Shown in pieces: positions 1,701 through 34,468 of a stretch of 64,000 nucleotides of DNA (position 1 is its first letter; every line of letters starts with the position of its first letter). Source of the stretch: Candidatus Latescibacterota bacterium (GTDB lineage: Bacteria > Latescibacterota > UBA2968 > GCA-2709665); contig OZ244744.1 of NCBI GenBank assembly GCA_965219455.1, positions 2,016,001 through 2,080,000 of the forward strand. The letters are read 5' to 3'. A program made the translations under genes and the position numbers. The notes beneath the pieces are model-generated. The model did not search any database, was not told where the DNA came from, and worked only from the letters and a program-made list of their open reading frames with translations.

Positions 1701-1757
1701 AGAAACAGAGGGCGCCGTCGCAGGGTCCGTTTCGAATCCGGGACGGAGGTAGAAGCT

Positions 1758-2348: not shown

Positions 2349-2452
2349 GTGGGTGAAGGCGGCAATGTTTTCCCCAGCGGTCGGGCGAGGGCTCGTCGCT
2401 GTTCAACTTTGATATTGGAATAGCAATCACTTTTTTAAAGGAGACCCCTTAA

Positions 2453-3328: not shown

Positions 3329-3354
3329 CCGGATGACAGCCGACGGAGGCCGGG

Positions 3355-7542: not shown

Positions 7543-7600
7543 TTCGGCGGCAAGCGACGCGGATACGCGAGAAAACCGGGATAGGCGGCGCGAAAATCAA

Positions 7601-8818
7601 ATGAGTTCAACATTCAAATGGCGCCTCTGTCATCCGGAGGTCGAATCGACAGATGGCGACGTGCCGTGCGCGAGGGAGGCGCCGGGCGCCATGCTGGCCT
7701 ACCATGGACGGATCTTCATGTTTGGTGGCGGTACGCTCAGATACGGCGCGTCGTCCGGACAGGGCAACAAGTCCACGCTGGGCGCACTGAATGACCTGTG
7801 GGCGTACGATCCGTCGATCGGGAAATGGACCCGGCTGGAAGAAAACGACGGTGCGACCGGGTTCGATATCTCGGCAGACCGTCCGTGCGCACGCATGTTG
7901 CCGGCATGGGTTGAGATAGACGACCGGTTCTATTTGTTCGGCGGGTTGTCGATCCTGAGCGAGGGATGGAAGTTCACCCTGTTGAACGACCTGTGGATGT
8001 ACGATCCTTCGGAAGCGCGCTGGACGCTGCTGGAGCCCGACGACGGCCTCCTGATGGAGCACCCTGACTGCGCGGGTCGGGGTCGACCGACCACCATGGG
8101 TGGGTTCGGAACGGCCGTTATCGGGAGGAAGATCTATCTGTTCGGCGGATGGGGCCACCGGGCGCCGCTTCCACCGACGGTGGAGACCGCGGTGCTGAGC
8201 AGGCAACTCTGGACTTATGATACCGGTACGGGGACGTGGGAGCGGATCGAAGCGGCGGATGACGCGGCCTGGCCGCCGAAGCGGTACGTCGCGTCGATGA
8301 CGGCCTGCCAGGGTCGTATATATCTTTGGGGAGGACGGGATACGCAGGACCGGGATCCGCAATTCTATAACGATCTCTGGCGGTTCGATCCGGATACCCG
8401 GGTATGGACCTGTCTCGCGAAAAATGACTTCGAGGCGGCAAACCGGCCTTCCGCCCGCTACGGCCAGGGTTCGGCCCGGATAGGAGATCGATGGTACGTT
8501 TTCGGCGGGTTCGGACCGCGGGGGACCTTCATGCCGGAAGAAGTGAATGGACCGCAACTGAACGATCTCTGGTGTGTGAATCTGAATTCCGGAGACTGGA
8601 CCTGCCTCCAGGCGCACGACGGATCGAAAGACTACTCGGAATCCGCGGCGTATCCGGGCGTACGGCGGGTGCCGGGCATGGTGGCCGTGGATGAATCGGT
8701 GTACCTGTTCGGCGGGCTGGACCTGGCGAGCGGGCCGAACAACGACGGGCCCGTGACGGGCTTTAACGACTTATGGGTCGGGCGCGAAGCGTCAGCGCGC
8801 TTTGCGATAGACAATTAG
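7601..8818 (+). CDS. Kelch-repeat beta-propeller protein
   Basis: Six repeats of (Y/F)LFGG; most followed by (L)NDLW..W; ATG at 7601 chosen to avoid overlap with the upstream gene. Confidence 0.85.
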   Translation: MSSTFKWRLCHPEVESTDGDVPCAREAPGAMLAYHGRIFMFGGGTLRYGASSGQGNKSTLGALNDLWAYDPSIGKWTRLEENDGATGFDISADRPCARMLPAWVEIDDRFYLFGGLSILSEGWKFTLLNDLWMYDPSEARWTLLEPDDGLLMEHPDCAGRGRPTTMGGFGTAVIGRKIYLFGGWGHRAPLPPTVETAVLSRQLWTYDTGTGTWERIEAADDAAWPPKRYVASMTACQGRIYLWGGRDTQDRDPQFYNDLWRFDPDTRVWTCLAKNDFEAANRPSARYGQGSARIGDRWYVFGGFGPRGTFMPEEVNGPQLNDLWCVNLNSGDWTCLQAHDGSKDYSESAAYPGVRRVPGMVAVDESVYLFGGLDLASGPNNDGPVTGFNDLWVGREASARFAIDN

Positions 8819-10371
8819 CCTCAATGCGAAAATAATGTTGATGAATTTCGGGGTATTGAAGACTAAGCGAGAATGCGAATAAGTCTATATTTTTCAATAG
8901 GAAAAGGCCTTCCATTTTGGTATATTGGGAAGCGACAAACGACCCATTTAACCCAAAACGAAAGGCCACGTACAGTGAGACGAAAGAAAGCGGATTTGCA
9001 CGCGCGTGTCAACGACAATTTGAAGATGGAATTCACCGGTGAAGGCCTCACCTCGTATGCGGGTTTGGAACTGTTGATGCGATATTTGCGAAACGTGGAT
9101 TGGAACAGGCAGTTGCGCCGTCACCTGGGCAGTGTGGGCTTTGGCGGCGATTTCGGTGTGGTGAGCCTGTGCCGTGTTCTGTTGGGTTTGCTGTGGGTAG
9201 GCGGCCGTCGGTTGCGGCATCTGGATTTCTTGAAAGGAGATCCCCTGCTGCAGCGGTTTTGCGGTCTGACGGATCTACCGACCCCCCGCAGCGTGAGTAC
9301 GTTTCTGAGACGGTTTTCCGACAAGGGTCTCAACGCCCTGAAAGCCCTCAACGCCGACGTGGTTGCCCATAAGATCAACCTGTTGCGCGCCCGAAAATTG
9401 ACGATCGACGTGGACGGCACCGTCTTGTGCACCGGAAAACGCGTCGGCGGTGCCCGCCGCGGGTATAATCCGCATCATCGCAAAGTCCCCAGTTACTATC
9501 CGATCACCGCCTACCTGGCCGACAGTGGTCATTTTCTGGGCGTGCACAACCGGGCAGGCAACGTCAATGATGGCAGCGCCTCCATCCTGTTTCTAAAGGA
9601 CGTGTTTTCCCAGATCAAAGAGACCTTGGGACACGCCTACACTCTGCGATTCCGCATGGATGGCGCCTTTTTCAAAGAGGATGTGGTGAACACGCTCATC
9701 AAGAACAAGGCCTCGTATGCCATCAAGGTACCCTTCTGGAAAGGCCTGGACTTACAGCACAAAATCCGTCAATGCAGCAACTGGCAGCGCATCGAGAAGG
9801 GCGTCGACGGCTTCACGTCAACGCTGACGGTCAAAAAATGGAAACGCACCCTCAACATTGCCATCTTTCGAAAACGCGTGATGCATCAAACCCGAAAGAA
9901 CTACCAGTTGGACCTGTTCGATCCCGATGATGGCACCTTCGAATACAGTGCGGTGGCTACCAATCTACCCTTCAAGTTGCGCGCGCTCTGGCGCTTCATG
10001 GCAGGCCGTGGTGCCCACGAAAAAGCCATTGGCGAACTCAAGACCGGACTTAGCTTCGATACCATCCCCACGCACCATTACCACGCCAATAGTGCCTGGC
10101 AACAGTTCGTCATTCTCGCGCACAACCTCCTGGTCAACTTCCAAATCGAAACCGGACTCACAAAACGCAATCGCACCTTGAAAAATACCAACCGATGGCC
10201 GCTCAAATCCATACGTACTCTCCGGTTCGAGCTCATCAACCGAGCCGGACACCTCGTGCGACCCGAAGGGCGTCTAACCCTGCGCCTCCAACGCAACAAG
10301 CACACCGAAAAACAATACCGTAAAATCTGCAACGCGCTCCAGAAAGCCGCCTGATTTATTTCACATTGAGG
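8819..10371 (+). mobile_element. IS1380-family insertion sequence (1553 bp), apparently complete
   Basis: Terminal IRs CCTCAATGCGAAAATAA (from 8819) and TTATTTCACATTGAGG (to 10371); TTAG direct repeat at 8815-8818 and 10372-10375; single transposase ORF. Confidence 0.92.
8975..10354 (+). CDS. IS1380 family DDE transposase
   Basis: LTSYAGL, TIDVDGT, GYNP, RMDGAF, RGAHEKAIGELK, ANSAW, TLRFELI motifs; GTG at 8975 is the likely start (ORF track starts at 8873). Confidence 0.92.
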   Translation: MRRKKADLHARVNDNLKMEFTGEGLTSYAGLELLMRYLRNVDWNRQLRRHLGSVGFGGDFGVVSLCRVLLGLLWVGGRRLRHLDFLKGDPLLQRFCGLTDLPTPRSVSTFLRRFSDKGLNALKALNADVVAHKINLLRARKLTIDVDGTVLCTGKRVGGARRGYNPHHRKVPSYYPITAYLADSGHFLGVHNRAGNVNDGSASILFLKDVFSQIKETLGHAYTLRFRMDGAFFKEDVVNTLIKNKASYAIKVPFWKGLDLQHKIRQCSNWQRIEKGVDGFTSTLTVKKWKRTLNIAIFRKRVMHQTRKNYQLDLFDPDDGTFEYSAVATNLPFKLRALWRFMAGRGAHEKAIGELKTGLSFDTIPTHHYHANSAWQQFVILAHNLLVNFQIETGLTKRNRTLKNTNRWPLKSIRTLRFELINRAGHLVRPEGRLTLRLQRNKHTEKQYRKICNALQKAA

Positions 10372-20911: not shown

Positions 20912-21021
20912 TCCGAGGACGGCTGAACGCTGATACCTGTTTTTCCTGACCGCTGATCGCTGGCGGCCAGGAATTGTGACGCGATACATACCATTTATAA
21001 TATTATTATACTAAATTAAAT

Positions 21022-22002
21022 ATGGAGAAACCGATGAAGTATGGGCGCGTTGAAGGGATTGACACGCCGGTTTCCCGGCTCGTTCAGGGCACGTTGATGC
21101 TGTCGACGGACGACCTGGAGGCGAACATCGGGTTTCTTGACGGGATCCTGGCGCTGGGTTGCAACAGTTTCGATACCGCGCAGATATATGGAAACGGACA
21201 GGCGGAGCGTACGCTGGGTGCCTGGATGGATCGACGCGGCAATCGAAGCGACGTATTCATTCTGAGCAAGGGCGGCCATCCCAATGCGGACCGCCGTCGG
21301 GTGACGGTGTTCGACGTGGCGTCCGATCTGTTTGATTCCCTGGCTCGGCTCAGGACGGATTACATCGACCTCTACCTGCTTCATCGGGACGATCCGGAGT
21401 TGCCGGTGGGGCCGCTCGTGGAGGCGCTGAACGAGCACATGTCCGAAGGGCGCATCCGGGCGTTCGGCGGATCCAACTGGTCGGTGAAGCGCATCGATGA
21501 AGCGAATTTATATGCGCAGAATCACGGCCTGAGGCCCTTCGTGGCCAGCAGTCCGAATTTCAGCCTCGCCGTGCGCATGAAAGAGATCTGGGAGGGCTGT
21601 CTGAGTATCTCCGGTCCTCGAGGGGCCGAGGAACGCGCCTGGTACCGGAAATCGCAGATGCCCGTGTTTTCCTGGTCCAGCCTGGCGCAGGGCTTTTTCT
21701 CCGGACTCCTTTCGCGCGGGAACGTCACGGAGATGGCGAATGAAATGACGGAAGGGTGCGCACAGGTCTACGGATACGAGGAGAACTTCAAGCGGCTGGA
21801 CCGCGCGGTCGAACTTGCCAACGAGCGAGGAAAGACCGTGGCGCAGGTCGCGCTCGCGTTTCTCTTCAACCAGCCTCTGAACGTCTTCACTGTGTCGGGC
21901 TGCAGGTCGGTCGAGGAAAGCCGTCTGAACCAGGAGGCCATGGAAATCCGGCTTTCGCCGGAGGAACTGGACTGGCTGGATCTGCGACGGGACAGCCGAT
22001 GA
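21022..22002 (+). CDS. Aldo/keto reductase
   Basis: FDTAQIYG, LSKG, YIDLYLLHRDD, GGSNW, WSSLAQG. Confidence 0.93.
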   Translation: MEKPMKYGRVEGIDTPVSRLVQGTLMLSTDDLEANIGFLDGILALGCNSFDTAQIYGNGQAERTLGAWMDRRGNRSDVFILSKGGHPNADRRRVTVFDVASDLFDSLARLRTDYIDLYLLHRDDPELPVGPLVEALNEHMSEGRIRAFGGSNWSVKRIDEANLYAQNHGLRPFVASSPNFSLAVRMKEIWEGCLSISGPRGAEERAWYRKSQMPVFSWSSLAQGFFSGLLSRGNVTEMANEMTEGCAQVYGYEENFKRLDRAVELANERGKTVAQVALAFLFNQPLNVFTVSGCRSVEESRLNQEAMEIRLSPEELDWLDLRRDSR

Positions 22003-22242
22003 CGGATAACGTGCAACCGGAGATGGATCTATTCGTCTAAATCCTCAGGATCGGTTTCGTGTCGAAAAACGGGCAGGGTATCCGAGGATCCCGAACCGGT
22101 TTTCCAGGAAATATCCGGCCGAACTGCAAAAAAGCGTCTCCTGCGGCGCTTTGGGCTTGACACAAATAGGCAATAGGGCTAAATATTCGATGTATCATGG
22201 TCGGACCTCAATCACGCATGGATTTGCGCGGGCAATGGAACG

Positions 22243-23892
22243 ATGCCAGGGACAAATTTGAAAACGTTGTTGATTGAAGACAACCCACTGCACACGCGGC
22301 TGATCCGAGAACTGCTCGCCGAGTCAAAGAGCCCGGAATTCGAGGTGGATGCGGCGGATACGCTCACGGAAGGGCTGAACCGGCTTTCAGCGGACGATCA
22401 CGAGTTGCTGCTACTGGACCTGGTGCTCCCCGACAGCGAGGACCTGGACACCTACTACCGCGTGCGCGCCGCATATCCGGACCTGACGGTTGTGATCCTT
22501 TCCAGCATGAAGGATATCAAACTGGCGGCCCGTGCCGTCGAAGCGGGGGCGCAGGATTATCTGGTCAAGTCCCAATTGAACGGCCCCCTTCTGGTACGGT
22601 CGATCCGATACGCCGTAGAACGCAGCCGGGCACTGCACGCCGAATGGGAGTCGCCGATGTTCCGGCTGGCGCAGCAACAGTTTCTGAAGGCCGCCCACCT
22701 GATGGAACTGGACGACAACATCCGGCAGCGGCTTTTGTTTCCCCAGCGTACCCACATGGTCACCTTTCCGTTCCGGCGCGACGAGCACGAGTACGTGGAA
22801 ACGGTCTCGGGTTATCGGATCCAGCATCTGTTGACGATGGGACCCACCAAGGGCGGCGTGCGTTACCATCACGACGTGAACCTGGGCGAGGTGACCGCCC
22901 TGGCGATGTGGATGACCTGGAAGTGCGCCCTGATGAACCTGCCGTTTGGCGGCGCCAAAGGGGGCGTGAGGATTGATCCGACCGTACTCTCACGCTCCGA
23001 ACTGCAGCGCCTGACGCGTCGCTATACGTCGGAGATCATCGACGTTATCGGACCACAGAAGGATATCCCTGCGCCGGATATGGGCACCGACGAACACGTG
23101 ATGGCCTGGATGATGGACACATACAGCCACCAGATGGGACATACCGTGCCGGCGGTCGTGACCGGCAAACCGGTGGTGCTGGGCGGCTCCGAAGGACGCC
23201 GCGAGGCGACGGGACGGGGGTTGGTGTATCTGGTGGAGGAGGCGGCCAAACATATCGGGATGGACCTGCGCCGTGCGACCGCCGTCGTCCAGGGGTTTGG
23301 AAACGTGGGAAGCAATGCGGCGAGATTCCTGGAAGCCTGCGGGGTCAAACTCGTGGGCGTCAGTGACGTGACCACCGGCATTTACAACCCCGATGGTCTT
23401 TCCTTGGATTCGCTGCTGCAACACACGGAAGAAAACCGGTTTCTGGAAGGTTACGCCGGCGGAGATGCCGTGAGCAATCAGGAATTGCTCGAGATACCGT
23501 GCGACATTCTAGTACCCGCAGCCCTGCAGAATCAGATCACAGCGGACAATGCCGAACGGATCACGTGCAGGATCCTGGCCGAAGGCGCCAACGGCCCCAC
23601 CACACTAGAGGCGGACGAGATTCTGCAGGAAAAGGGGACCTTTATCCTGCCGGACGTGCTCGGCAATGCCGGAGGGGTTACGGTTTCCTATTTCGAATGG
23701 GTGCAGGATACGCAGAATTACATGTGGACGCTGGAGGAGATCAACGATAAACTCCGGAAGATTCTGCTCCACGCGTTCCAACGGACCATGCGAAGATCGC
23801 AACGGGACGGGCTGGATATCCGTACGGCGGCGCTCATTGAAGGGATCCACCGTGTAACGCAGGCGAAACTCCTGAGGGGTATCTTCCCATAG
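22243..23892 (+). CDS. Response-regulator receiver domain fused to a Glu/Leu/Phe/Val (glutamate) dehydrogenase
   Basis: aa ~5-125 REC (LLIED, LLLLDLVLPD, VILSS, AQDYLVK); remainder GDH (GPTKGGVRY, MTWKCA, GGAKGG, DIPAPDMGT, VVTGKP, QGFGNVG, EGANGP, NAGGVTVSYFEW). Confidence 0.93.
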   Translation: MPGTNLKTLLIEDNPLHTRLIRELLAESKSPEFEVDAADTLTEGLNRLSADDHELLLLDLVLPDSEDLDTYYRVRAAYPDLTVVILSSMKDIKLAARAVEAGAQDYLVKSQLNGPLLVRSIRYAVERSRALHAEWESPMFRLAQQQFLKAAHLMELDDNIRQRLLFPQRTHMVTFPFRRDEHEYVETVSGYRIQHLLTMGPTKGGVRYHHDVNLGEVTALAMWMTWKCALMNLPFGGAKGGVRIDPTVLSRSELQRLTRRYTSEIIDVIGPQKDIPAPDMGTDEHVMAWMMDTYSHQMGHTVPAVVTGKPVVLGGSEGRREATGRGLVYLVEEAAKHIGMDLRRATAVVQGFGNVGSNAARFLEACGVKLVGVSDVTTGIYNPDGLSLDSLLQHTEENRFLEGYAGGDAVSNQELLEIPCDILVPAALQNQITADNAERITCRILAEGANGPTTLEADEILQEKGTFILPDVLGNAGGVTVSYFEWVQDTQNYMWTLEEINDKLRKILLHAFQRTMRRSQRDGLDIRTAALIEGIHRVTQAKLLRGIFP

Positions 23893-24052
23893 TGTCCCGT
23901 CCCAGAAATATGTTACCATTCATCCGCCGATTCATCCCGTCTCGCTACGTTGCCTTCGCTCGCCGACCTTGGGCAGGGCGCCTTGCTCAGGCGCCTTGCC
24001 AGCCGGGCGACTCGGCGGCCGAATTTCGGCAATCTATTTCTGGGACAGAACA
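23893..24052. mobile_element. MITE-like element, 160 bp
   Basis: 18-bp TIRs TGTCCCGTCCCAGAAATA / TATTTCTGGGACAGAACA (16/18 match); ATAG direct repeats at 23889-23892 and 24053-24056; no ORF. Confidence 0.75.
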
Positions 24053-24067
24053 ATAGGAAGGTCTGAA

Positions 24068-27000
24068 ATGGACGATTATGCCGACCCGCGTCTGGTGCGG
24101 CTGGCCGCGATAGCCGCGCAAACGGCGAATCTTATCGTTGTAATGCTGTCCCTCCTGGTTCTCTGCGGATGGCTGGTCAGCGCACCCGTCGCCGAATGGA
24201 TGTCTCTATTGACGGCGGGGATGTTCGTACTCACGGGCGTGGCGCTGTGGCTGCTGCGCAGCGGGAGGTCGTCCGACAGGCGGCAGTTCCTGGGGAAGGC
24301 AATCGGCGCCGTGGTGGTGGTCTTCGCGTTTCTGGAAATGGTTGGTGCGGGCCCCGTATTTATCGGTTTCGAGGCCGGCGCGGGGCATATGTTGCGCGAT
24401 GAGGCGTGTAATTTCGCCCTGATCGGTCTGGCCTTGTTTCTCTGGCGATTTAAAATCAGAGGAAGCGCATGGCCGGCGCTGACGTGTCTGTCTGTCGCTT
24501 CAATCGTATCGATCGGTTATGCAATTGGACATTTTTACCTGACGCTCTCGCCCCGGGAAGTGACATGGGATATTCAGATGAGCGCCGTCACAACGCTCAC
24601 ATTCGGCCTGCTGTGCATTGGCCTGTTTTTATCCCGACCGGACCTGGAACCAACGACAACCATCGTCAGCTCGACCGCTGGCGGTTCGATGGCGCGCCGG
24701 TTGCTGCCTCCCGCTTTCCTGATTCCGCTGGCTCTGGGCTGGCTCTGGCCTCACAGCGAAGTGATATTGGGCTTCGAATCCGGAATGTCTCTGTTCTCCC
24801 TGGGGGTGATCGTAGCGCTGAACATTCTGATCTGGTGGTACGCCCGGTCGCTCGCGTATCTGGACTCCGAACGGAAGCGCTCAGAACAGGCATTGCGTGA
24901 GAGCGAAGCCCGGCTCAAGCTGGCAATGGAAGCCGCCCACATGGGGAGTTGGGATTCCAACCTGCTGACCGGAGAACTGGTCTGGTCGGATCTGGTGGCG
25001 CCGTTGTTCGGCCTTAAACCGGAAGTGTTCGAAGGTACGCGCGAGGCGTTCTATGGACTCGTGCACCCCGAAGACCGGGCGATGGTTCGCAGTGCGGTGC
25101 GGCGCACGATCAGGGAAGGGGTGGATTTCGAGGTCGAGCACCGGGTTGTATGGCCGGACGGGACGGTTCGGTGGCTGGGAAATAAAGGCCGCGTTTTCGG
25201 CGACGGCGCGGGGCAGTATGTACATATGATTGGTACGGTGCGGGATATCACGCTACGCAAGCGAACCGAGATACAGCTGCAGGAAAAGAACCGGCAACTC
25301 GAGAAAACCGCGGCTGCCGAGCGTGAAGCGAACGAAGCGCTGAAGAAGAGCTCGGTCGCCCTGGAGCGTTCAAGGGCGGAGCTGCAGAAAGCAAAAGACG
25401 CCGCGGAAAAGGCGAATCGCGCAAAAAGCGAGTTTCTGGCCAATATGAGCCACGAGATCCGTACGCCGATGAATGGCATCATGGGCATGACGGAGCTTCT
25501 GGGCAACACGGAGTTGACGCCTCAACAGCGCGAGTATCTCAAGTTGAGCAGGCAGTCTTCGGAGGCCTTACTGGCACTTCTGAACGATATTCTCGATTTC
25601 TCCAAACTCGAGGTGGACCGGCTGGAACTGGAGGCGATCGGCTTCGACCTCCGCGATACGCTGGGGGACACCGTTCAGACCCTTGCGGTTAAAGCCACAC
25701 AGAAGGGGCTGGAACTGGCGTGCCATATTGCACCGGAGGTTCCGGACAGGCTGGTGGGGGACCCGGGCCGTTTGCGGCAGATCGTGATCAACCTGGTGGA
25801 CAACGCCATAAAGTTCACGGAGAAAGGCGACGTGCTGGTTGACGTAAAGGTGGACGCACGGGAGGAAGAGAAGCTCTGTCTGAGGTTCTTTGTTCGGGAT
25901 ACCGGCATCGGGATCGCACCCGAAGATCGGCGGATCATTTTCGACTCTTTCAGCCAGGTAGACTCTTCTACTTCCCGGCGGTTTGGAGGAACGGGGCTGG
26001 GCCTGGCGATTTCATCCCAACTGGCCACGATGATGGGTGGACGCATGTGGGTGGAGAGCGCGCATGACAAAGGGAGCACGTTTTATTTCACAGCGCTCTT
26101 CGAGGCCCAACCCCAGCCGGCGAAGCGGTCGGCGGCCGATCTCCAGTCCCTGGTGGGTCTCCGGGCGCTGGTGGTGGATAACAACCGTACAAACCGGTTT
26201 ATCTTCGAGGAGATGCTGGGAACCTGGGGTATGAAAATTGACGTGGCGGATTCGGGGCCGGCCGCGCTCGAGACACTGCGGGAGGCTGGCGAGGCGGATT
26301 CGCCGTTCCACCTTTTCTTACTGGACGCAATGATGCCCGGTATGGACGGGTTCGCGCTGGCCGAGCGAATACGCCGGGATCCGGATGTGAAAAACGTACC
26401 GATTCTGATACTTTCGTCCGCGGGAAGAACACGCGACGCGGTGCGATGTGACGCCTTGGGGCTTGCGCGATGTCTGACAAAGCCGGTCAAGCAGTCCGAC
26501 CTGCTCGATGCCGCGCTGGCAGCCCTGAACGTAAGCGTTATCGAGCCCGTAGATATCGCAAAGATTGCGGAACCGTTGCCGCCCGCCCATAGGCGCCGCG
26601 TCCTGTTGGCAGAGGACGGCATGGTCAACCAGAAGGTGATTGTGGACCTGCTCGGGCCGCGCGGGCACCAGGTTACCGCCGTCAACAACGGCAAGGAAGT
26701 ACTCGCGGCGCTGGAGAACGACACATTCGACCTGATCCTGATGGATATTCAGATGCCGGAGATGGATGGGTTGGAGGCAACACGGATTATCAGGGAACGG
26801 GAAACGTCGACGGGGGCGCATATTCGAATTGCGGCGATGACGGCCCACGTGATGCAGGGAGACCGAGAGCGGTGTCTGGAACAGGGGATGGACGACTACC
26901 TTTCCAAGCCGATCCGGGCGGGACATCTCTTCGATGTTGTGGAGAATAACGGCTCATCCGGCAGCGTATCGCAGGCGGAGCCCGGCGATGATGCTGTCGC

Positions 27001-27340
27001 TCTGGATTGGCAGGGAGCCCTGGAACAGGTTGGCGGCAACGAGGCGCTTCTGGGTGAACTGGCCGGCCTGTTTGTTACGGAGTACGCGAAGCACCTTGAA
27101 GAAATGAAACGGGCGATCGCAAACGGTGATGGATCGCGGCTGCGGCGCGCGGCCCACACACTGAAGGGGTCGGCGGCTATTTTCCTTGCCGATCCGACCG
27201 TCGAGGCGGCGTTGCGGCTGGAAACCATGGCGCGCGAAGGGGATCTTGAAGACGCGAATGAAGCGCTCGCCGCGCTGGAACGGGCAGCGGACGGGTTGCT
27301 GCCGGCGCTGAAAGAAAAAGCTGCCGCGGTTGTTGCGTAG
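24068..27340 (+). CDS. Membrane-bound hybrid sensor histidine kinase (TM-PAS-HisKA-HATPase-REC-REC-HPt)
   Basis: Several hydrophobic helices; PAS/PAC (VHPEDR, PDGTVRW); MSHEIRTP; NAIKFT, DTGIG, GGTGLGL; two REC domains (LLDAMMP, LMDIQMP); AHTLKGS HPt; start moved to the ATG after the MITE. Confidence 0.95.
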   Translation: MDDYADPRLVRLAAIAAQTANLIVVMLSLLVLCGWLVSAPVAEWMSLLTAGMFVLTGVALWLLRSGRSSDRRQFLGKAIGAVVVVFAFLEMVGAGPVFIGFEAGAGHMLRDEACNFALIGLALFLWRFKIRGSAWPALTCLSVASIVSIGYAIGHFYLTLSPREVTWDIQMSAVTTLTFGLLCIGLFLSRPDLEPTTTIVSSTAGGSMARRLLPPAFLIPLALGWLWPHSEVILGFESGMSLFSLGVIVALNILIWWYARSLAYLDSERKRSEQALRESEARLKLAMEAAHMGSWDSNLLTGELVWSDLVAPLFGLKPEVFEGTREAFYGLVHPEDRAMVRSAVRRTIREGVDFEVEHRVVWPDGTVRWLGNKGRVFGDGAGQYVHMIGTVRDITLRKRTEIQLQEKNRQLEKTAAAEREANEALKKSSVALERSRAELQKAKDAAEKANRAKSEFLANMSHEIRTPMNGIMGMTELLGNTELTPQQREYLKLSRQSSEALLALLNDILDFSKLEVDRLELEAIGFDLRDTLGDTVQTLAVKATQKGLELACHIAPEVPDRLVGDPGRLRQIVINLVDNAIKFTEKGDVLVDVKVDAREEEKLCLRFFVRDTGIGIAPEDRRIIFDSFSQVDSSTSRRFGGTGLGLAISSQLATMMGGRMWVESAHDKGSTFYFTALFEAQPQPAKRSAADLQSLVGLRALVVDNNRTNRFIFEEMLGTWGMKIDVADSGPAALETLREAGEADSPFHLFLLDAMMPGMDGFALAERIRRDPDVKNVPILILSSAGRTRDAVRCDALGLARCLTKPVKQSDLLDAALAALNVSVIEPVDIAKIAEPLPPAHRRRVLLAEDGMVNQKVIVDLLGPRGHQVTAVNNGKEVLAALENDTFDLILMDIQMPEMDGLEATRIIRERETSTGAHIRIAAMTAHVMQGDRERCLEQGMDDYLSKPIRAGHLFDVVENNGSSGSVSQAEPGDDAVALDWQGALEQVGGNEALLGELAGLFVTEYAKHLEEMKRAIANGDGSRLRRAAHTLKGSAAIFLADPTVEAALRLETMAREGDLEDANEALAALERAADGLLPALKEKAAAVVA

Positions 27341-27351
27341 TGGATCGAATG

Positions 27352-27538
27352 CGGAGTCCGCCGGTTGCATTGATGACGAGAAAGCAGATTGGTTTTAACT
27401 AAAGATGATGCCCCCTTTGGGGGCATCTTTTGGTATATTGGGAATGCGAACACTACCTTTGACGTGTCCCCAACCATTCACGGATCCTCAGAATTGGTGC
27501 GCATTTACGTAAAGGTTCCATAACACCGAATTTATGAG
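27352..27538 (+). repeat. Dispersed repeat copy 1 (integrase-tail/terminator/att-like module)
   Basis: Aligns by eye with 28700-28832 and 31695-31883; reads RSPPVALM in one frame; GC hairpin; ends at TAAC-N7-TTAT. Confidence 0.75.
27407..27431 (+). terminator. Rho-independent terminator-like hairpin inside repeat copy 1
   Basis: GATGCCCCC-TTT-GGGGGCATC followed by TTTT. Confidence 0.65.
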
Positions 27539-27696
27539 TGGATTCAGCGCATCTGGAAAATATCTCGTGCTGCTTAATTCAACATTCCAGATCGCAAGAA
27601 ATATGGAGGTCTCCCTCTGTGCTTCTTTTTTCGCGAATCCATCATCTTCCACCCCCGCACAATGGCTTATCGAACCTTAGAGGAAGCGTGTGTGAA

Positions 27697-27721
27697 GGTG
27701 GGGCAGACATTCCTGTCTGCC
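27697..27721 (+). repeat. REP sequence
   Basis: GGTGGGGCAGACATTCCTGTCTGCC hairpin with a GTGG foot. Confidence 0.8.
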
Positions 27722-27729
27722 ATTCTCAT

Positions 27730-27945
27730 TGTCCTTCTGCCGCAATACAACCAGAAGAAATGCTTGCGCCGCCGTTATGGAGCCAATACTCGTCGTCGCG
27801 CTTGAGCCACATCTCAAGCACTTCGTGGAAGGTACGGCGTGTGGCCACGGGCGATCGCATCAGCCAGGCGAAAGGTGATCCAATAGATAGTGTCGTCCTT
27901 TTCCAATGGGGGAGACAGCTGCGAGTCGTGGCGTGCCAGTACACA
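27730..27945 (-). pseudogene. REP-associated tyrosine transposase (RAYT) relic, frameshifted and internally deleted
   Basis: LPHW (one frame), TIYWITFRLADAI (another frame) and WLHNGG..C match the RAYT N-terminus; no HUH motif left; flanked by inverted REPs; boundaries approximate. Confidence 0.65.
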
Positions 27946-27974
27946 GGATTCCGAGGTTCCGGTTTGAAGTATAT

Positions 27975-28000
27975 GAGCAGACAGGAATGTCTGCTCCACC
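27975..28000 (-). repeat. REP sequence (inverted partner of 27697-27721)
   Basis: Reverse complement GGTGGAGCAGACATTCCTGTCTGCTC. Confidence 0.8.
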
Positions 28001-28071
28001 TTTTCAAGCCTACCCTTCCTGCCAATAAAGTGTGAGGCAACTTTCCCTCCGAGTTTGATTTAGAATATTGG

Positions 28072-28101
28072 GCCGAGCGGAGAATCTATGAAGAAGGCTA
28101 A
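28072..28101 (+). pseudogene. BrnT-like toxin, C-terminal stub only
   Basis: AERRIYEEG-stop overlapping the start of the next gene, as BrnT C-termini typically do. Confidence 0.5.
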
Positions 28102-28315
28102 TGCGGAAGAGCTTCGTCCTGAATATTGCCGTGAAGATCTCGGTCCCGGCGTCCGTGGAAAGTATCTGGAATCTTTCCGACCGGGGACCAACCTGGTTTT
28201 GCTGCAACCTGACGTCGCGAAGGCATTTCCAACCGAGGAAGCCGTAAATGATGCGCTTCGGTCGTTTATGAACGCGGATGATGGTCCGGTTGACGCCCGG
28301 ACGGGCGGCGAATGA
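28088..28315 (+). CDS. BrnA-like antitoxin
   Basis: ELRPEY, GVRGKY, LQPDVAKAFP...AVNDALR. Confidence 0.7.
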   Translation: MKKANAEELRPEYCREDLGPGVRGKYLESFRPGTNLVLLQPDVAKAFPTEEAVNDALRSFMNADDGPVDARTGGE

Positions 28316-28374
28316 AATTTCGCTATGCTGGGTGAATCCGAGAAGTCAATTTAAACTTGATCCGGAGGACTGTG

Positions 28375-28593
28375 ATGACTCAACTTCTCGAGAAAGCGAT
28401 TTCGGAAATCAAGAAGCTTTCCAATGATGAGCAAGACGCGATTGCGGCCGTCCTGATGGCGGAGTTGGAGTCAGAACGCCAGTGGGAACGTGCATTTGAC
28501 TCGACGGCAGAGCAGTTGTCAGGTCTTGCAAATGAGGCTCTCGATGAATACCGAACAGGCAAGACTGAACCGTTCGAATCGCACGGCTCATGA
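28375..28593 (+). CDS. Putative antitoxin (addiction-module type)
   Basis: MTQLLEKA...EQDAIA....EL..E..W...F...LA.EAL.EY..G.T pattern; GGAGG RBS; ATGA coupling to a toxin-like ORF. Confidence 0.65.
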   Translation: MTQLLEKAISEIKKLSNDEQDAIAAVLMAELESERQWERAFDSTAEQLSGLANEALDEYRTGKTEPFESHGS

Positions 28594-28721
28594 TATCCCG
28601 GACAACCCGTCGTTTTCGTGACGCGCTACTCGATCTTCCCCGACCCGTCCAGGTTCAGGCTGCCGCTGCACGGTCAACTAACAGGATAACTCAATTTTCC
28701 GGAGCCCACCGGATGCATTGA
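28590..28721 (+). pseudogene. Truncated ParE/RelE-like toxin
   Basis: MISRTTRRFRDALLDLPRPVQVQA.. N-terminus, then runs into repeat copy 2 and stops after 43 aa. Confidence 0.6.
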
Positions 28722-28832
28722 TGACACCATAGAGCAGATTGGTTTTAAGTAAGTATGATGCCCCCTTTGGGGGCATTTCTTGGTATATTGGGAATACGAA
28801 CATTACAGGATGATTCGATCCTGAACATTGGT
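28700..28832 (+). repeat. Dispersed repeat copy 2 (3'-truncated)
   Basis: Highly similar to copy 1 over ~105 bp including the ATGCCCCCTTTGGGGGCAT hairpin; reads RSPPDALMTP-stop. Confidence 0.75.
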
Positions 28833-28949
28833 ATATCCAGAGACCTGGAACACACTGTCACAACGGCTCGGCAAACCCGAAATTCGGCACGAACGGAAGA
28901 AGCGCATATACGCGCAGAAACAAAGAATGTCCTCCCCCCAGTTTTCTTC

Positions 28950-28981
28950 TTGTATAACATCATTTATGATGTATATTCTAC
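28950..28981 (+). promoter_or_regulatory. Putative TA promoter with operator palindrome
   Basis: TTGTAT (28950) ... TATATT (28972) with ACATCAT-TT-ATGATGT between; ATG at 28982 without an RBS. Confidence 0.55.
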
Positions 28982-29371
28982 ATGAACCGAAAATGGCGCA
29001 TCCTCTATTACATAGCTGAAAACGGATACTGCCCCGTTCAAGAGTTCATTGATAGTCGCTCAGATCGAGACCAGGCCAAGACGTTCAGTTGGCTTGCTCA
29101 ATTGGAAATAGACGGACCGAGCCTACCCAGGCCATATACGGATCTCTTGGACAGCGGAATCCACGAACTCAGACTAACGCTTTCTGGCGACCAGGTGCGC
29201 ATCCTCTACTTTTTCTGTTTCAGAGATTTCATTGTATTGACCCACGCTTTTGTGAAGCGTACCCGGCGCGTACCGGTCGCTGAAATTCACCTCGCCAAGA
29301 AGTATCGTGAGGATTTCCTTTCTCGATTTGACGAGGGTAGTTTAAAGGAGGAACTGGATGAGGAGCTTTAG
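28982..29371 (+). CDS. Type II toxin, RelE/ParE (Gp49/HigB-like)
   Basis: CPVQEFI, LPRPY..L..GIHELR, RILYFF, LTHAFVKRT. Confidence 0.88.
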   Translation: MNRKWRILYYIAENGYCPVQEFIDSRSDRDQAKTFSWLAQLEIDGPSLPRPYTDLLDSGIHELRLTLSGDQVRILYFFCFRDFIVLTHAFVKRTRRVPVAEIHLAKKYREDFLSRFDEGSLKEELDEEL

Positions 29372-29648
29372 ACGTCATCTGGACGAAAAGCTCAAAGATG
29401 AGCGATTCAGGCGACTGTATGACGAAGAGCGACAGCTTACCGAGCTGTCGTTGAAGATACACCAAATGCGAGCGCAGCTGGGTCTTTCGCAGCAGGAGGT
29501 TGCCAGAAGAGCGAAGGTCACACAACAGCAATTGTCAAAGGTTGAGAATGGGATCAATTGCAATTTGACAACGTTTTTGAAGGTATGCCATGCTCTGGAT
29601 CTGACGGTAGAGTTAGAACGACCCAACGCCAGACAGCAGGTGAGTTGA
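29358..29648 (+). CDS. XRE-family HTH antitoxin (HigA-like)
   Basis: LSQQEVARRAKVTQQQLSKVENG HTH; overlaps the toxin gene. Confidence 0.88.
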   Translation: MRSFRRHLDEKLKDERFRRLYDEERQLTELSLKIHQMRAQLGLSQQEVARRAKVTQQQLSKVENGINCNLTTFLKVCHALDLTVELERPNARQQVS

Positions 29649-29801
29649 TTCTGTGTGGAAGTGAAGCCGCCTACGCCGGTTCATTAGCTCTCTGAAACTC
29701 TTAGATGCCAGGTGAGGAGACGTCCTCGCGCCGTATTTCCAGAAGAAGATATCGATATTTTGCAGGGCGAGCCCTGGACCTGGATTCCTGGAGGTTTGGA
29801 C

Positions 29802-30017
29802 ATGAGAAATGAATTCACCGCGATGATCGAACACGACGGCGAATGGATCATTGCCTTTTGTCCTGAGATCCCCGGCGCCAATGGACAGGGAAAGAACAGG
29901 GACGATGCACTTGCGAGCTTACGAGAAGCGATATCGCTCATCCTGGAGGATCGGCGGGAGGACGGACTTCGCGCTGTGCCTGCAGAGGCGGAACGTGAAA
30001 TTGTCGTGATCGAATGA
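29802..30017 (+). CDS. HicB family antitoxin
   Basis: MRNEFTAMIE.DG.W.IA.CPEIPGANGQG....A..SLREAI; GGAGG RBS. Confidence 0.85.
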   Translation: MRNEFTAMIEHDGEWIIAFCPEIPGANGQGKNRDDALASLREAISLILEDRREDGLRAVPAEAEREIVVIE

Positions 30018-30024
30018 AACGACA

Positions 30025-30074
30025 CCCTTCGGCAGCCTTTCGACCCTTCGACAGGCTCAGGGACCACAAGCTCA
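30025..30074 (+). repeat. CCCTTCGACAGGCTCAGG-type REP-like repeat
   Basis: 47/50 identical to 31557-31606; related inverted unit at 32724-32743. Confidence 0.8.
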
Positions 30075-30180
30075 AGACAATGCTCAGGGTGCAGTCTCAA
30101 ACGCCGAGCTAAGTGTACGAAGACCGTGAGACGTCAAAGGAAACCGGACAAAGGCAATGACATTACAATGGAGGATCTGA

Positions 30181-30765
30181 ATGGCTGGCTGGCTAGAATT
30201 GACATTCCCGGTTGAAGCTGGCAAGGGATCTGTGATTGTTATCGATGACGAACGTGTCCATTTGCTCGCAGATCCCCTCCGGCGGCGCATCCTCGAAACT
30301 CTTGGCGAGGGGAAATCCGTGGAGGAGATTTCATCGATATTGGGTATGACCGATACCCGGGTCCTCCGTCACCTGCAACGACTCGCGGAATCAGATGTCG
30401 TACATCTTCAAGAAACGGGCAGCGATCCCAGGGCCTGGCGATGCATCCCTGTGGCGGGCAAGATTCGAATCCGGGACACACTTGATGAGACGGCCAAAAC
30501 CTCCCTGCCTGTACCTTCGGAGGTTGCCTGTCAGTTTAATCAGGCGTTTCGCGAAAGTGCGGACGGCATATTCGGTCCGAATTTCCAAAGCTCTGTCAAC
30601 CATAACCGGGCTCGACTCTCGGAAGAACAGGCGGCCGAATTCAACCGTCGGCTCCTGGACCTGATAGAGGAGTACTTTCCACCTGGCAGAGGCGATCCCA
30701 CCGGAATCAAGTATGGCTTTTTCGGCGTGCTGACCCCGATTGATCTTCCTCCTATCGAGTCGTGA
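30181..30765 (+). CDS. ArsR-like winged-helix regulator
   Basis: LADPLRRRIL.....KSVEEIS......V..HLQRL; C-terminal LSEEQAAEF...L..LIEEY. Confidence 0.8.
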   Translation: MAGWLELTFPVEAGKGSVIVIDDERVHLLADPLRRRILETLGEGKSVEEISSILGMTDTRVLRHLQRLAESDVVHLQETGSDPRAWRCIPVAGKIRIRDTLDETAKTSLPVPSEVACQFNQAFRESADGIFGPNFQSSVNHNRARLSEEQAAEFNRRLLDLIEEYFPPGRGDPTGIKYGFFGVLTPIDLPPIES

Positions 30766-30916
30766 CAGAAAGGTATTTGCACCCATCTTGCGTGCGAATG
30801 TCCCACATCCTTTCACAACACGGTTACTTCTGTGACCGCGGAGTTCACCCCCAACCCGGCGCGGTTCGGGGGCACTGAACCGTTACGCGCCATTGCAGTT
30901 CGACGGAGATCAAGAA

Positions 30917-31441
30917 ATGACAACCTTCTATCTCATTCGGCATGGAGAACCCAATTGGGATTTAGCTGCCGGAGAGGATCTCAAAGGCGCCCAGGTGGGG
31001 TGGGCAGCCCATATCGTTCCGTTGACCGAGACTGGCATCAGCCAGATTGAGAATGCTTCAAGAACCCTGTCAACTGAAGATCCTGAGCTCATTATTTCGT
31101 CGCCAATGTCTCGGTCGCTGCAGTCGGCTGCCATACTCAGCCGCATACTCGAACTTCCACTTCGAGTCGAGTTTGATCTGCACGAATGGATTTGTGGATG
31201 GCGCGATTCGCTTGAGCTTGTCGGCGAAACCGTGGCAGAAATGCAAAAGCTGGGAGGCGAGTGGCCTCCGGGTGAGACAAGAGATTGGGAGCCGATGTCC
31301 AGTGTGCGCGACCGTGTCAATCGTGTTTTAGGACAATACCGGACCTTCCATCGTGTTGTCGTTGCGTGTCATGAAACCGTTATTCTCTCGCTCACCGGAA
31401 AGAGGATGGGGTTTGCTGAATTTGTAAGGATAGAAAAGTAG
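30917..31441 (+). CDS. Histidine phosphatase (phosphoglycerate mutase) family protein
   Basis: LIRHGE, PLTETG, SSPMSR..QSA, DLHEW, VACH. Confidence 0.88.
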   Translation: MTTFYLIRHGEPNWDLAAGEDLKGAQVGWAAHIVPLTETGISQIENASRTLSTEDPELIISSPMSRSLQSAAILSRILELPLRVEFDLHEWICGWRDSLELVGETVAEMQKLGGEWPPGETRDWEPMSSVRDRVNRVLGQYRTFHRVVVACHETVILSLTGKRMGFAEFVRIEK

Positions 31442-31556
31442 CAGCTTTGTAATCCGAAACCGGGGATCACCATGCCACCGGCTGGCGCATCCAGTGACAC
31501 AACCGGTTGTGCTGCTGTTCGAACGCCTCGGCTATTTCAAATAAAAATAGCACTTG

Positions 31557-31606
31557 CCCTTCGGCCGCCCTTCGACCCTTCGACAGGCTCTGGGACCACA
31601 AGCTCA
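31557..31606 (+). repeat. CCCTTCGACAGGCTC-type REP-like repeat, second copy
   Basis: 47/50 identical to 30025-30074. Confidence 0.8.
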
Positions 31607-31694
31607 GCGTGTAAGCTCAACGGCCCCGCCCGGGGTACGCAAACCGGACGATGTCATACGCAAGTGGGTCGGGCATCGGGATAATCCGCATCTT

Positions 31695-31883
31695 CGGAGC
31701 CCGGTGGACGCATTGATTAACGAAATGTAGACAGGGTTTAGTTAGTGACGATGCCTCCGATAGGTGCATTTTTAAATATGTTCGGAATGCATGAATCTGG
31801 GAGTGATACGTTGCCGAACGTACGGAGATCCTCAGATTTGATGCCTATTGCCGTAAAGGTTCGGTAACATCGTGGTTATAGGC
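31695..31883 (+). repeat. Dispersed repeat copy 3 (most diverged)
   Basis: Reads RSPVDALINEM-stop; 31827-31880 matches 27483-27536 at 41/54 ungapped positions; ends GTTATAGGC. Confidence 0.7.
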
Positions 31884-31954
31884 CATCAGCTAAGACACAA
31901 AGGGGCGCAGGCCCCGTAACACAACCCATATTTTCGCATTCAAAGTCACAGAAA

Positions 31955-32416
31955 ATGGATATGGCAAAACAGAAGATTTATTTGGATTCAACTGTTCCAA
32001 GCGCATATTACGATTCAAGAACCCCAGAGCGCCAAGGACAGACCCTTCAGTTTTGGGAATTACTTTTACCAGATTTTGAGGCGGTTATTTCAAGCGCTGT
32101 CTTGTCAGAAATTCGCGGCACTCCAGATGCTGAAAGAAGAAGGTAATTGGAAAACCTCGTAATGGAATTCGGAGTTTTGGTGTTCGATGAAGAAGCCGAT
32201 ACTCTGGCTCAAGAATATGTCCGAAGGGGTGTTTTTCCGGAAAAATACATAGATGATGCCAACCACGTTGCTATTGCAGTGACCAATGGAATTGAGTATT
32301 TTTGCAGTTGGAACTTCACACATCTCGTAAAAGTAAACACGCGACGCGAAGTTAATACGATCAATGCATTGAAGGGCTATGGACCGATAGAGATTATTGC
32401 TCCGCCAGAGTTATAG
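31955..32416 (+). pseudogene. PIN-domain (VapC-like) toxin with an in-frame TAA at 32144-32146
   Basis: IYLDSTVPS ... DDANHVAIA ... SWNFTHLV ... PPEL; the two ORFs 31955-32146 and 32147-32416 are in the same frame. Confidence 0.8.
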
Positions 32417-32426
32417 GAGGTCATCC

Positions 32427-32612
32427 ATGAGGGAAGTGACCCAGGCAGAGAAGGAGAAGATCCGGGAGGATGTTCGGAAGGAATTTCCGAATGATGAAAT
32501 GATGCAGGAAATACACTTCATTCGGCAAGTACATTATTTACAGACTAAAGATTCATCAATAGAAGAACGCCTTCGCTTTTTTGAAGGTCCAATTCAGAAG
32601 ACATCGGTATAG
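32427..32612 (+). CDS. Small hypothetical protein, probable partner of the PIN toxin
   Basis: AGGAGG RBS; 61 aa; directly follows the PIN gene. Confidence 0.6.
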   Translation: MREVTQAEKEKIREDVRKEFPNDEMMQEIHFIRQVHYLQTKDSSIEERLRFFEGPIQKTSV

Positions 32613-32820
32613 TTGGATAAGAAATTGGCGATGGTGCGTCCGAGATGCGGCAGCCCTCTATCGTTTTATGCGAAGGGGGCTGTCAGCGTATAACACGCAC
32701 GGTTAAGCTACGTTCACGGAGTTTATCCTGAGCTTGCCAAGGGCGCGACGGTTTTCGGCAACAACCCGCGCGGGTCCGCAAACCGTGAAACGCTAAAGGA
32801 AAAATGGCCCTGGAAGGAAC

Positions 32821-33549
32821 ATGAAGATCGCGGTACTGACTGATGTCCACGGCAATTTGCCGGCACTACAGGTTGCACTGAAATCAATTCGGCGAGAGGG
32901 TGTCGATGCGATTTTTCATACAGGCGATGCCATCGGTATTGGCCCATTCCCGGCAGAATGCCTGGAACTGCTGCTGAGCACGCCTGGTATGAATCTGATT
33001 TGCGGTAATCATGACTCCTGGTTTTCGAGCGGGCTTCCAAGACCATCCAGGATGAGCGACGGCGAGTTGAAACATCAGGAGTGGGTACATTCCTGCCTTG
33101 ATCCATCACTGCGTTATACAGTGAGACAATGGCCGTACCTGATTCAAGATGCGTATAAAGGCGTTCGAATATCGTTTCTTCACTACGGCCTTACAGAGTC
33201 GCAGGTTGACTTCACGTCCGTCATCCAGAACCCTCGTCCTGTGGACCTGGACAAAGTCTTCGCGGATATAAAATCCGATCTCGTATTCTATGGCCACAAT
33301 CATTCAGCTTCAGATTTAGTGGGGACGGCCAGATACGTAAATCCCGGTTCTCTGGGCTGCCATTCTGAACCCATTGCGCGGTTCGCCATCCTGGAGTGCG
33401 AGAGAGGGAGATACGAATTGAATCTGCGCCACGTTCCTTACGATGATAGCGCCCTATTCCAGCAGTTTGAAAGTCGCGATGTTCCCGAACGGCATTTCAT
33501 CTATAATACATTCTTCGGTGGACGGAATGCACCAACCCGCCCCGGATGA
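32821..33549 (+). CDS. Metallophosphoesterase (YfcE-like)
   Basis: DVHGN, TGD, GNHD, GHNH, VNPGSLG. Confidence 0.9.
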   Translation: MKIAVLTDVHGNLPALQVALKSIRREGVDAIFHTGDAIGIGPFPAECLELLLSTPGMNLICGNHDSWFSSGLPRPSRMSDGELKHQEWVHSCLDPSLRYTVRQWPYLIQDAYKGVRISFLHYGLTESQVDFTSVIQNPRPVDLDKVFADIKSDLVFYGHNHSASDLVGTARYVNPGSLGCHSEPIARFAILECERGRYELNLRHVPYDDSALFQQFESRDVPERHFIYNTFFGGRNAPTRPG

Positions 33550-33664
33550 GATATCCTCTGACATGGTTGAAGAATGGCAATCAAACGACTGGTGAATCAA
33601 CTACCGAACATAATAGTATCTTTCGCTGAATGACGTCCGGTGCTTTCGGGCATCTGGGAATACC

Positions 33665-34468
33665 ATGACGGTCAATCGTATGCCAGTTCGGATTAAGGCC
33701 TTTTGCGTCGGGCAGGCAAAGTCCGGAACGGCATCTCTCGTCGGCCTGCTTTCAGCCAATTACCGCGCGGCCCATGAACCCGAGCGCCCGGAGTTACTCA
33801 GTATGATACTCCGCGAATCCCGGGGTGAACTCTCCGCCGAGGCCTTCCGTAGGTTTCTCCTTGAGCGTGACGTCCGGCTCAACCTGGAGTATGATGTCTC
33901 GTGGCCAAACCAATTTATCATAGACCATTTGCTGCACGTCTTCCCGGCCTCGAAGTTCATCGTTCTCATTCGCGACAGCTATACGTGGCTCCAATCGGCC
34001 ATCGGGCACGTCATCAGCCGGGAGATGCCCTCTGAAATCTTAAACTTTCTCCCCTGGTGGATCAAACCGGAACGCTATCCCCACTCGCGTCAGGATCGCG
34101 CGCTTGCAGAGCGCGGGCTTTTTTCTATTGCGGCCTACCTGCACGCCTGGAACGGGCATGTCGACAGGTGCACCCGGCTGATCCCTGAGGACCGGCGGCT
34201 TTTACTTCGGACCCATGAACTGGCTCGTTCGCATGGGCGATTGGCGGACTTCCTGGAAATACCCGAGGATTCACTCGACGCCGACAAAGGGCATCAAAAC
34301 AGCAGCACCTGGCCGGACCGGATCGAGTCCCTCGTCGATCCGTTCTACATCGACGAGATGGTCCAATCGATATGTGCAGACAACATGGCCCGTCATTTTC
34401 CTGAAATAAGAAGAGCTCAGGATGTGTCGCGGCTATGGGAAGCCGTGCCGCGTGAGCCTGCGACCTGA
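33665..34468 (+). CDS. Sulfotransferase-like P-loop protein
   Basis: GQAKSGTASL (5'-PSB-like), AHEP, FIVLIRD...WLQS (3'-PB-like). Confidence 0.7.
   Translation: MTVNRMPVRIKAFCVGQAKSGTASLVGLLSANYRAAHEPERPELLSMILRESRGELSAEAFRRFLLERDVRLNLEYDVSWPNQFIIDHLLHVFPASKFIVLIRDSYTWLQSAIGHVISREMPSEILNFLPWWIKPERYPHSRQDRALAERGLFSIAAYLHAWNGHVDRCTRLIPEDRRLLLRTHELARSHGRLADFLEIPEDSLDADKGHQNSSTWPDRIESLVDPFYIDEMVQSICADNMARHFPEIRRAQDVSRLWEAVPREPAT

Follow-up and report, generated by a model that had tools for sequence, protein, structure and literature searches.

Could a glutamate dehydrogenase be switched as the output of a two-component signaling system? The question is raised by a gene in a stretch of 64,000 nucleotides from a Candidatus Latescibacterota bacterium (contig OZ244744.1, positions 2,016,001 to 2,080,000; this whole stretch is termed the window, and coordinates are counted from its first nucleotide). 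The gene encodes a glutamate dehydrogenase (GDH) with a receiver domain (REC) at its N terminus, and we refer to the product as REC-GDH. Two-component systems are known mainly for the control of transcription, motility and second messengers, and the control of GDH is known to operate by allostery, through partner proteins and at the level of expression. We find that REC-GDH is real, widespread and uncharacterized, that it constitutes a new type of output for a known kind of switch, and that it comes with a candidate kinase.

A preliminary description of the locus, made from the nucleotide sequence alone, had read the gene as one continuous frame of 549 codons that keeps the canonical REC residues, the GDH lysines and the nucleotide-binding motif GFGNVG. 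The frame is indeed unbroken (Table 1), and every named motif is present in the translation. The claim that a receiver and a full GDH share one protein is borne out by three Pfam domains above their cut-offs. These are Response_reg (PF00072; residues 9-110, 57.8 bits against a cut-off of 30.2), ELFV_dehydrog_N (PF02812; residues 167-296, 177.6 bits) and ELFV_dehydrog (PF00208; residues 314-546, 267.5 bits), and all three scores far exceed chance. The phospho-site comprises the acidic pair E12-D13, D59 in LLLLDLVLP (codon 22417-22419), S87 in VILSS, Y106, and K109 in DYLVK, which we take to correspond to CheY positions 12/13, 57, 87, 106 and 109. The GDH part is laid out as N-terminal helices (138-165), domain I with K203 (PTKGG), K227 (WKCA), K239 (GGAKGG) and D279, and an NAD(P) domain with GFGNVG at 351-356. 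The catalytic roles of the three lysines and D279 are presumably those described for Clostridium symbiosum GDH. The best NCBIfam matches are GdhB_Halo (496.4 bits, cut-off 620) and GdhA_Arch (482.6 bits, cut-off 750), with residues 137/141-549 aligned end to end on the haloarchaeal and archaeal GDH models. The protein can thus be assigned as a GDH by superfamily and residues, and as an equivalog of neither family.

Among proteins of solved structure, the nearest relatives are hexameric GDHs. Residues 136-549 align with residues 3-416 of the Thermotoga maritima GDH chain (1b26; 471.7 bits). The receiver was left unaligned by all 56 matched sequences of the Protein Data Bank (E<=1e-20), whose best stretches all begin at residue 130 or later. 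An AlphaFold2 (AF2) model built on 79 close sequences gives the receiver the (beta-alpha)5 fold, with five strands (5-11, 32-38, 55-59, 82-87 and 105-108) alternating with five helices (15-26, 41-50, 67-77, 89-100 and 114-132). The predicted local distance difference test (pLDDT) score is 80-93 at residues 11-120 and ~73 in the first and last receiver blocks. The first GDH helix of the model spans 138-153 and alpha5 of the receiver 114-132, so that the two domains would be joined by ~4 residues or fewer. E134 and W135 at the junction are kept in 133/133 fused proteins. We considered EW(D/E)SP as a linker specific to the fusion and rejected it, since the motif also opens the unfused GDHs at loci L011, L015, L016 and L058 and so belongs to the GDH.

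The fusion recurs widely. Identical sets of the three Pfam domains are present in all 120 of the 90%-identity clusters listed (68-90% identical, 539-566 amino acids), among which are named Gimesia maris, Gimesia algae, Pontibacterium, Amphritea, Oceanospirillaceae, Latescibacteria, Gemmatimonadota and Longimicrobiaceae. Receiver and GDH lie in one frame in 12 of the best 80 species-genome loci (L002-L010 and L012-L014), which with the window make up our set of 13 fused loci. Within the phylum of the window the full-length fused form occurs in 20 of 151 sampled genomes. It is found in all 15 genomes of the window's own genus, at 89-92% identity and with one GDH match each, whereas four genomes of sister genera have only unfused GDHs (49-50% identity). 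An independent contig from another study (run X2, 2842 nt) covers 22000-23742 with 0 differences and bridges the domain junction near 22640. A misassembly or one-off fusion is therefore rejected, since more than 130 independent sequences have the fusion in one frame, several within contigs 3.7-8 Mb long, and since the X2 contig agrees.

The preliminary description knew of no characterized REC-GDH, and full-text literature searching likewise found none, although a census of output domains and the supplementary tables of P2CS may list the architecture. The architecture is less unfamiliar than that description implied, being widespread, annotated by NCBI and JGI, and hinted at by P2CS. In public annotations these fused proteins go by "response regulator", among other names. 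A table in the 2009 paper on the P2CS database (PMC2716373) includes EC 1.4.1.3, marked "Probable", with the enzyme activities of two-component proteins.

Some other arrangements of the same GDH subfamily were seen. Locus L058, from a Gaiellaceae metagenome-assembled genome (MAG), was considered as a full-length fusion and rejected, as a separate gene for a REC and LuxR-type protein (5992-6630) lies upstream of an unfused GDH (6986-8275). This NarL/LuxR-type regulator gene, just upstream of a GDH of the same subfamily, may represent transcriptional two-component control. Two further long forms, P0134 (CTP_transf_1 + GDH, 607 amino acids) and P0266 (PGK + HHH + GDH, 1103 amino acids), may be fusions created by gene calling.

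We next consider which residues are kept. In the alignment of fused proteins the phospho-acceptor D59 is invariant (133/133), as are E12, Y/F106 and K109 (each 133/133), with D13 kept in 130/133 and T/S87 in 129/133. K203, K227, K239, D279 and G351/G353/N354/V355/G356 are invariant in the 79 fused sequences of the main clade, and all three catalytic lysines are kept in 85 of 94 sampled fused proteins. Receivers usually signal through their alpha4-beta5-alpha5 face. In REC-GDH alpha4 is the most conserved helix of the receiver, with a mean entropy of 0.83 bits against 1.4-1.8 for alpha1-alpha3, and alpha5 carries a conserved stripe on one face (L117, R119, Y123, A124, E126, R127 and R129). The N-terminal helices of the GDH have mean entropies of 0.47 and 0.57 bits, similar to the 0.53 of catalytic domain I. 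This pattern of conservation indicates that the phospho-site and the GDH half are both under selection.

A tree of 64 rows based on the GDH alone separates 37 unfused GDHs from the fused set by the starred branch (97), and the fused label requires 3 changes on this tree compared with a mean of 20 when shuffled. The tree thus points to a single origin of the REC-GDH fusion. Two REC-less GDHs, at loci L011 (5959-7257) and L015 (5896-7254), are 70-74% identical, share an N-terminal extension IRPFDQPL(D/E)P and nest inside the fused clade, for which loss of the receiver is the simplest explanation. A stand-alone orthologue of the receiver was not found in these two genomes with the query used, the best matches being 34% (45.4 bits) and 37% (76 bits) identical. 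Members of different phyla are mixed together in the fused clade, and the genus of the window is unlike its sister genera; this suggests horizontal spread, probably of a two-gene cassette.

The second gene of that cassette encodes the kinase partner, the main new result of this analysis and a candidate kinase for REC-GDH. Downstream of REC-GDH in the window lies a hybrid sensor histidine kinase (Table 1), for which the ATG at 24068, with aggaagg resembling a ribosome-binding site, is the likelier start. About seven hydrophobic segments in residues 9-260 are followed in order by PAS_3, HisKA, HATPase_c, two REC and Hpt domains. The H-box HEIRTP places the histidine at H462, the Hpt motif HTLKG has H1030, and both receivers have their phospho-acceptor aspartate. 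No Pfam family was found at E<=1 for the N-terminal 301 residues, nor for the corresponding 312 residues of the kinase at L002.

Seven of the 13 fused loci, from at least 4 named phyla, have a HisKA-HATPase-REC-REC-Hpt kinase as a co-oriented neighbor: the window, L002, L004 (Gemmatimonadota), L006 (Pirellulales), L007 (Halomonas stenophila), L009 (Microbulbifer) and L014 (Lujinxingia). It lies upstream of the GDH in L006 and L009, and in L009 the Hpt is a separate small gene. A CHASE protein beside REC-GDH in L008 is cut by the contig end, and the contigs of L003 and L005 end too soon for adjacency to be assessed. The gap between GDH and kinase genes is 16-31 nt in L002, L004 and L007, and 175 nt in the window (measured from ATG 24068). 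Sensor domains vary between the loci (PAS, GAF+PAS, CHASE, or none that has a name). Across the transmitter core of ~690 residues, identity is 41-50%. In five of six other genomes (G001, G002, G004, G005 and G159) the GDH-adjacent kinase is the best genome-wide match to the window core, by wide margins. Within the genome of the window, no paralogue comes closer to this core than 107.6 bits (30% identity). Among four sampled genomes of the same family that do not have the fusion, two have partial kinase matches (157.8 and 173.3 bits), one has hybrid kinases of 40% identity, and one has no match to the window core at E<=1e-40.

Other genes accompany the fusion at two loci. The L006 pair, whose kinase has four receiver stretches, is flanked by a CheA-like protein (HATPase-CheW-REC; 158-1849) and a REC-PAS-SpoIIE (PP2C) regulator (8147-10360). 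In L012, a Planctomycetota MAG locus where no kinase is adjacent, a GXGXG-domain protein, as in glutamate synthase, is encoded directly upstream of REC-GDH (1479-2288).

Table 1. Features of the REC-GDH locus, in window coordinates.
Feature	Position	Strand	Basis and remarks
Possible sigma-70-type promoter (TTGACA, 17 nt, TAAATA)	22157..22185	+	~57 nt upstream of the ATG; by eye, weak
REC-GDH gene (P0001)	22243..23892	+	Single ATG-to-TAG open reading frame (ORF), 549 amino acids, no internal stop
Receiver domain, residues 1-133	22243..22641	+	Pfam, AF2 model, conservation
Junction E134-W-E-S-P138	22642..22656	+	GDH start directly after REC alpha5, by homology to Thermotoga maritima GDH
Complete GDH, residues 134-549	22642..23889	+	Pfam, NCBIfam, residues, alignment to sequences of the Protein Data Bank
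Dispersed repeat of ~165 nt, resembling a miniature inverted-repeat transposable element (MITE) or repetitive extragenic palindrome (REP)	23890..24056	.	Between GDH stop and kinase start; read depth, genome matches
Hybrid sensor histidine kinase, 1090 amino acids	24068..27340	+	ATG 24068, ORF opens at TTG 23969; Pfam

What would be the consequence of switching this enzyme? The whole genome, a single contig of 5.84 Mb, has one match to PF00208, which is REC-GDH, and no large GDH of the PF05088 type was found in it. REC-GDH is therefore the only GDH found in the complete genome. Three loci with genes like glutamine synthetase and a large glutamate synthase are present elsewhere, so that glutamate has a route other than GDH. 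A search of this 100%-complete genome for a P-II protein (PF00543) gave no match, while the control search matched 13 of 14 reference genomes.

The preliminary description had proposed a phospho-accepting response regulator with a catalytically competent GDH output. This fits the conservation of residues in both halves and the Hpt-bearing kinase next door, and we would give a probability of about 60% to REC-GDH being a true response regulator with a working GDH output, switched through the phosphorelay of the adjacent kinase. Phosphotransfer from that kinase and any effect on catalysis, in whichever direction, are inferred. In such a scheme the hybrid kinase would sense a signal through its membrane and PAS input and autophosphorylate on H462. 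The phosphoryl group would then move through one or both of the kinase's own receivers to H1030 of the Hpt, which would phosphorylate D59 of REC-GDH. Phosphorylation of D59 would alter the alpha4-beta5-alpha5 face of the receiver, and this face, being almost linker-less to the N-terminal helices of the GDH, would change GDH activity or the assembly of the hexamer. The coupling might take the form of CheB-like occlusion, pairing of receivers between subunits, or an influence on how the hexamer assembles. In this way the sole GDH of the cell would be switched post-translationally, within seconds.

A number of observations weigh against this reading. In the window the 165-nt repeat separates the two genes, which makes their co-transcription uncertain. 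No kinase is adjacent in 3 of the 13 fused loci (L010, L012 and L013), and the window kinase core has no match in the genome of L012 at E<=1e-60. The adjacent kinase in G003 (573 bits) ranks second among three paralogues with nearly equal scores, the other two having 586 and 542 bits. The genome of L011 has a homologue of the kinase (622 bits, 52%) yet only a REC-less GDH, so that the kinase family does not go strictly hand in hand with REC-GDH. Five divergent fused proteins (P0123, P0137, P0138, P0219 and P0248) have replacements at two or three of the three catalytic lysines, with the receiver residues intact; hence the fused REC and GDH fold can persist without catalysis. Lastly, the AF2 model is poor in domain I of the GDH (pLDDT <50 at 167-211, 236-246, 268-286 and 299-314) and does not give the geometry between the domains.

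The proteins with replaced lysines form REC-pseudoGDH lineages, in which P0272 and P0273 group with P0137, and the glycine motif for nucleotide binding is also lost in P0138 and P0248. When representatives are taken at 50% identity, the best 150 include seven REC-GDHs, and the five lysine-replaced proteins are among these seven. The REC-pseudoGDH proteins may be regulatory subunits or sensors.

These offshoots bear on two alternatives. Information might flow in reverse, with the GDH domain sensing glutamate, 2-oxoglutarate or NAD(P)H and its ligand state tuning how readily the receiver gains or sheds phosphate. REC-GDH would then feed metabolic information into the relay, or drain phosphate from it, besides its role as a GDH. 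The lysine-less relatives keep D59, T87, Y106 and K109, which makes the GDH fold valuable beyond catalysis, and a kinase family that occurs alongside only a REC-less GDH could have other targets. Moreover RocG and GudB of Bacillus subtilis are trigger enzymes acting towards GltC. However, no other REC-containing ORF that could serve as the output was found within 6 kb in L002, L004, L007, L009 and L014, the catalytic residues are invariant in the clade of the window, and REC-GDH is the sole GDH there. We regard reverse flow as unlikely. Alternatively, phosphorylation might govern the binding of partners, localization or the formation of hetero-oligomers in place of the catalytic rate, with REC-GDH moonlighting, for example as a regulatory subunit in the manner of GdhA/GdhB of Thermus thermophilus. 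GdhA and GdhB (3aoe and 3aog) are indeed among the closest solved relatives and REC-pseudoGDH lineages exist, but the window genome's single gene of the GDH family leaves no partner there for a hetero-hexamer, and the kinase is the only candidate partner conserved in the neighborhoods. This seems to us quite unlikely.

The three fused loci that have no adjacent kinase could also be explained if the receiver were a constitutive structural or oligomerization module that is never phosphorylated in vivo, and receivers that act independently of phosphorylation do exist. Such atypical receivers usually lose the aspartate, the threonine or the lysine, all of which are retained here almost throughout, and an Hpt-bearing kinase is a conserved neighbor, so that we think a purely structural role highly improbable. 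An artefact of assembly or gene calling that joined a receiver gene to a GDH gene has nothing in its favor and is already refuted by the recurrence of the one-frame fusion and by the contig that bridges the junction; its likelihood is negligible.

The reading of REC-GDH as a kinase-switched response regulator can be extended. The relay would directly switch the sole GDH, bypassing transcription, in a genome where no P-II was found; horizontal transfer would have carried the two-gene cassette among Planctomycetota, Gemmatimonadota, Pseudomonadota and Myxococcota that are marine or halophilic, possibly as a means of setting the glutamate pool rapidly; and the dead offshoots may be subunits or sensors under phospho-control. 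We put this composite forward tentatively, as having somewhat less chance of holding in full than of failing. The physiological role is a matter of speculation, but marine and halophilic bacteria might use the switch to adjust their glutamate pool quickly, either for carbon/nitrogen balance or for osmoadaptation with potassium glutamate. The named hosts are, we assume, mostly marine or halophilic. A gene for a TrkA-type potassium channel lies beside the kinase in L002 and L004, and a trehalose-phosphatase gene lies upstream in L005. In Rhodopirellula baltica a GDH gene, which may or may not be a fused one, is up within 10 min of salt shock (PMC2754498).

How does REC-GDH compare with known systems? 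An N-terminal receiver with a complete phospho-site on an enzyme is shared with CheB (REC-methylesterase), PleD and WspR (REC-GGDEF), RpfG (REC-HD-GYP), the REC-PP2C proteins and PorX (a REC-phosphatase-like protein). By analogy with CheB, phosphorylation would be expected to relieve an inhibition or to change oligomerization. Unlike CheB, PleD, RpfG and PorX, the output of REC-GDH is an oxidoreductase of primary metabolism that is normally hexameric, the linker is nearly absent, and the protein is known here from its sequence. The catalytic lysines and GXGXXG motif are shared with the hexameric GDHs of T. maritima (1b26/2tmg), T. thermophilus (3aoe/3aog) and B. subtilis (RocG, 3k92; GudB, 3k8z), but these solved enzymes have no counterpart of the receiver. 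The closest solved receivers by sequence include 1qkk, 1l5y and 1zy2 (~38-41 bits). NtrC1 and DctD are among them, the similarity being weak and generic. There the output, an AAA+ ATPase and not a GDH, assembles into a ring under the control of the receiver's alpha4-beta5-alpha5 face and a continuing helix.

The candidate relay resembles the multi-step phosphorelays ArcB/ArcA, BvgS/BvgA and TorS/TorR in having an H-box histidine, receiver aspartates and an Hpt histidine, followed by a terminal receiver protein. Relays of the ArcB/ArcA type end on a transcription factor, whereas the one proposed here would end on an enzyme. A post-translational phospho-signal at the 2-oxoglutarate/glutamate node would be shared with GarA and OdhI of actinobacteria. 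Those are separate FHA proteins phosphorylated on threonine, while the acceptor in REC-GDH would be an aspartate within the enzyme itself. Mammalian GDH differs again from the control proposed here, being regulated allosterically by small molecules.

The remaining features of the locus concern its transcription. In two DNA runs the read depth over the repeat between the genes is 900-4000 compared with ~19, and numerous loose ends occur at 23890-23892 and 24052. Scoring 40 of 199 first-look candidates gave 49 matches to the repeat within the same genome. They lie on both strands and are for the most part 77-94% identical, and three further matches, on the opposite strand, are weak (67-69%). It is partly palindromic, with a GC-rich hairpin GCCGAATTTCGGC at 24018-24030, and the sole terminator-like hairpin of our scan sits inside it. 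A consensus scan of 21900-24200 gave 0 promoter-like sites, and Rfam gave 0 matches on 21000-34000. Metatranscriptome contigs X9 and X10 (99-100% identity) cover only pieces of 22840-23830, reaching neither the receiver part nor the intergenic region. Farther downstream, ~2.1 kb (28035-30181) contain no ORF of at least 150 amino acids on either strand.

If REC-GDH is operated in the manner we favor, what a cell senses in its environment would act directly on the glutamate/2-oxoglutarate node. GDH would be regulated in a new way, and the control of a hexameric metabolic enzyme by a receiver would have a tractable model. Hosts in culture include Halomonas stenophila, Gimesia species, Lujinxingia vulgaris and Pontibacterium, and the spread of the cassette across phyla together with its pseudo-enzyme offshoots would offer natural material for comparison.

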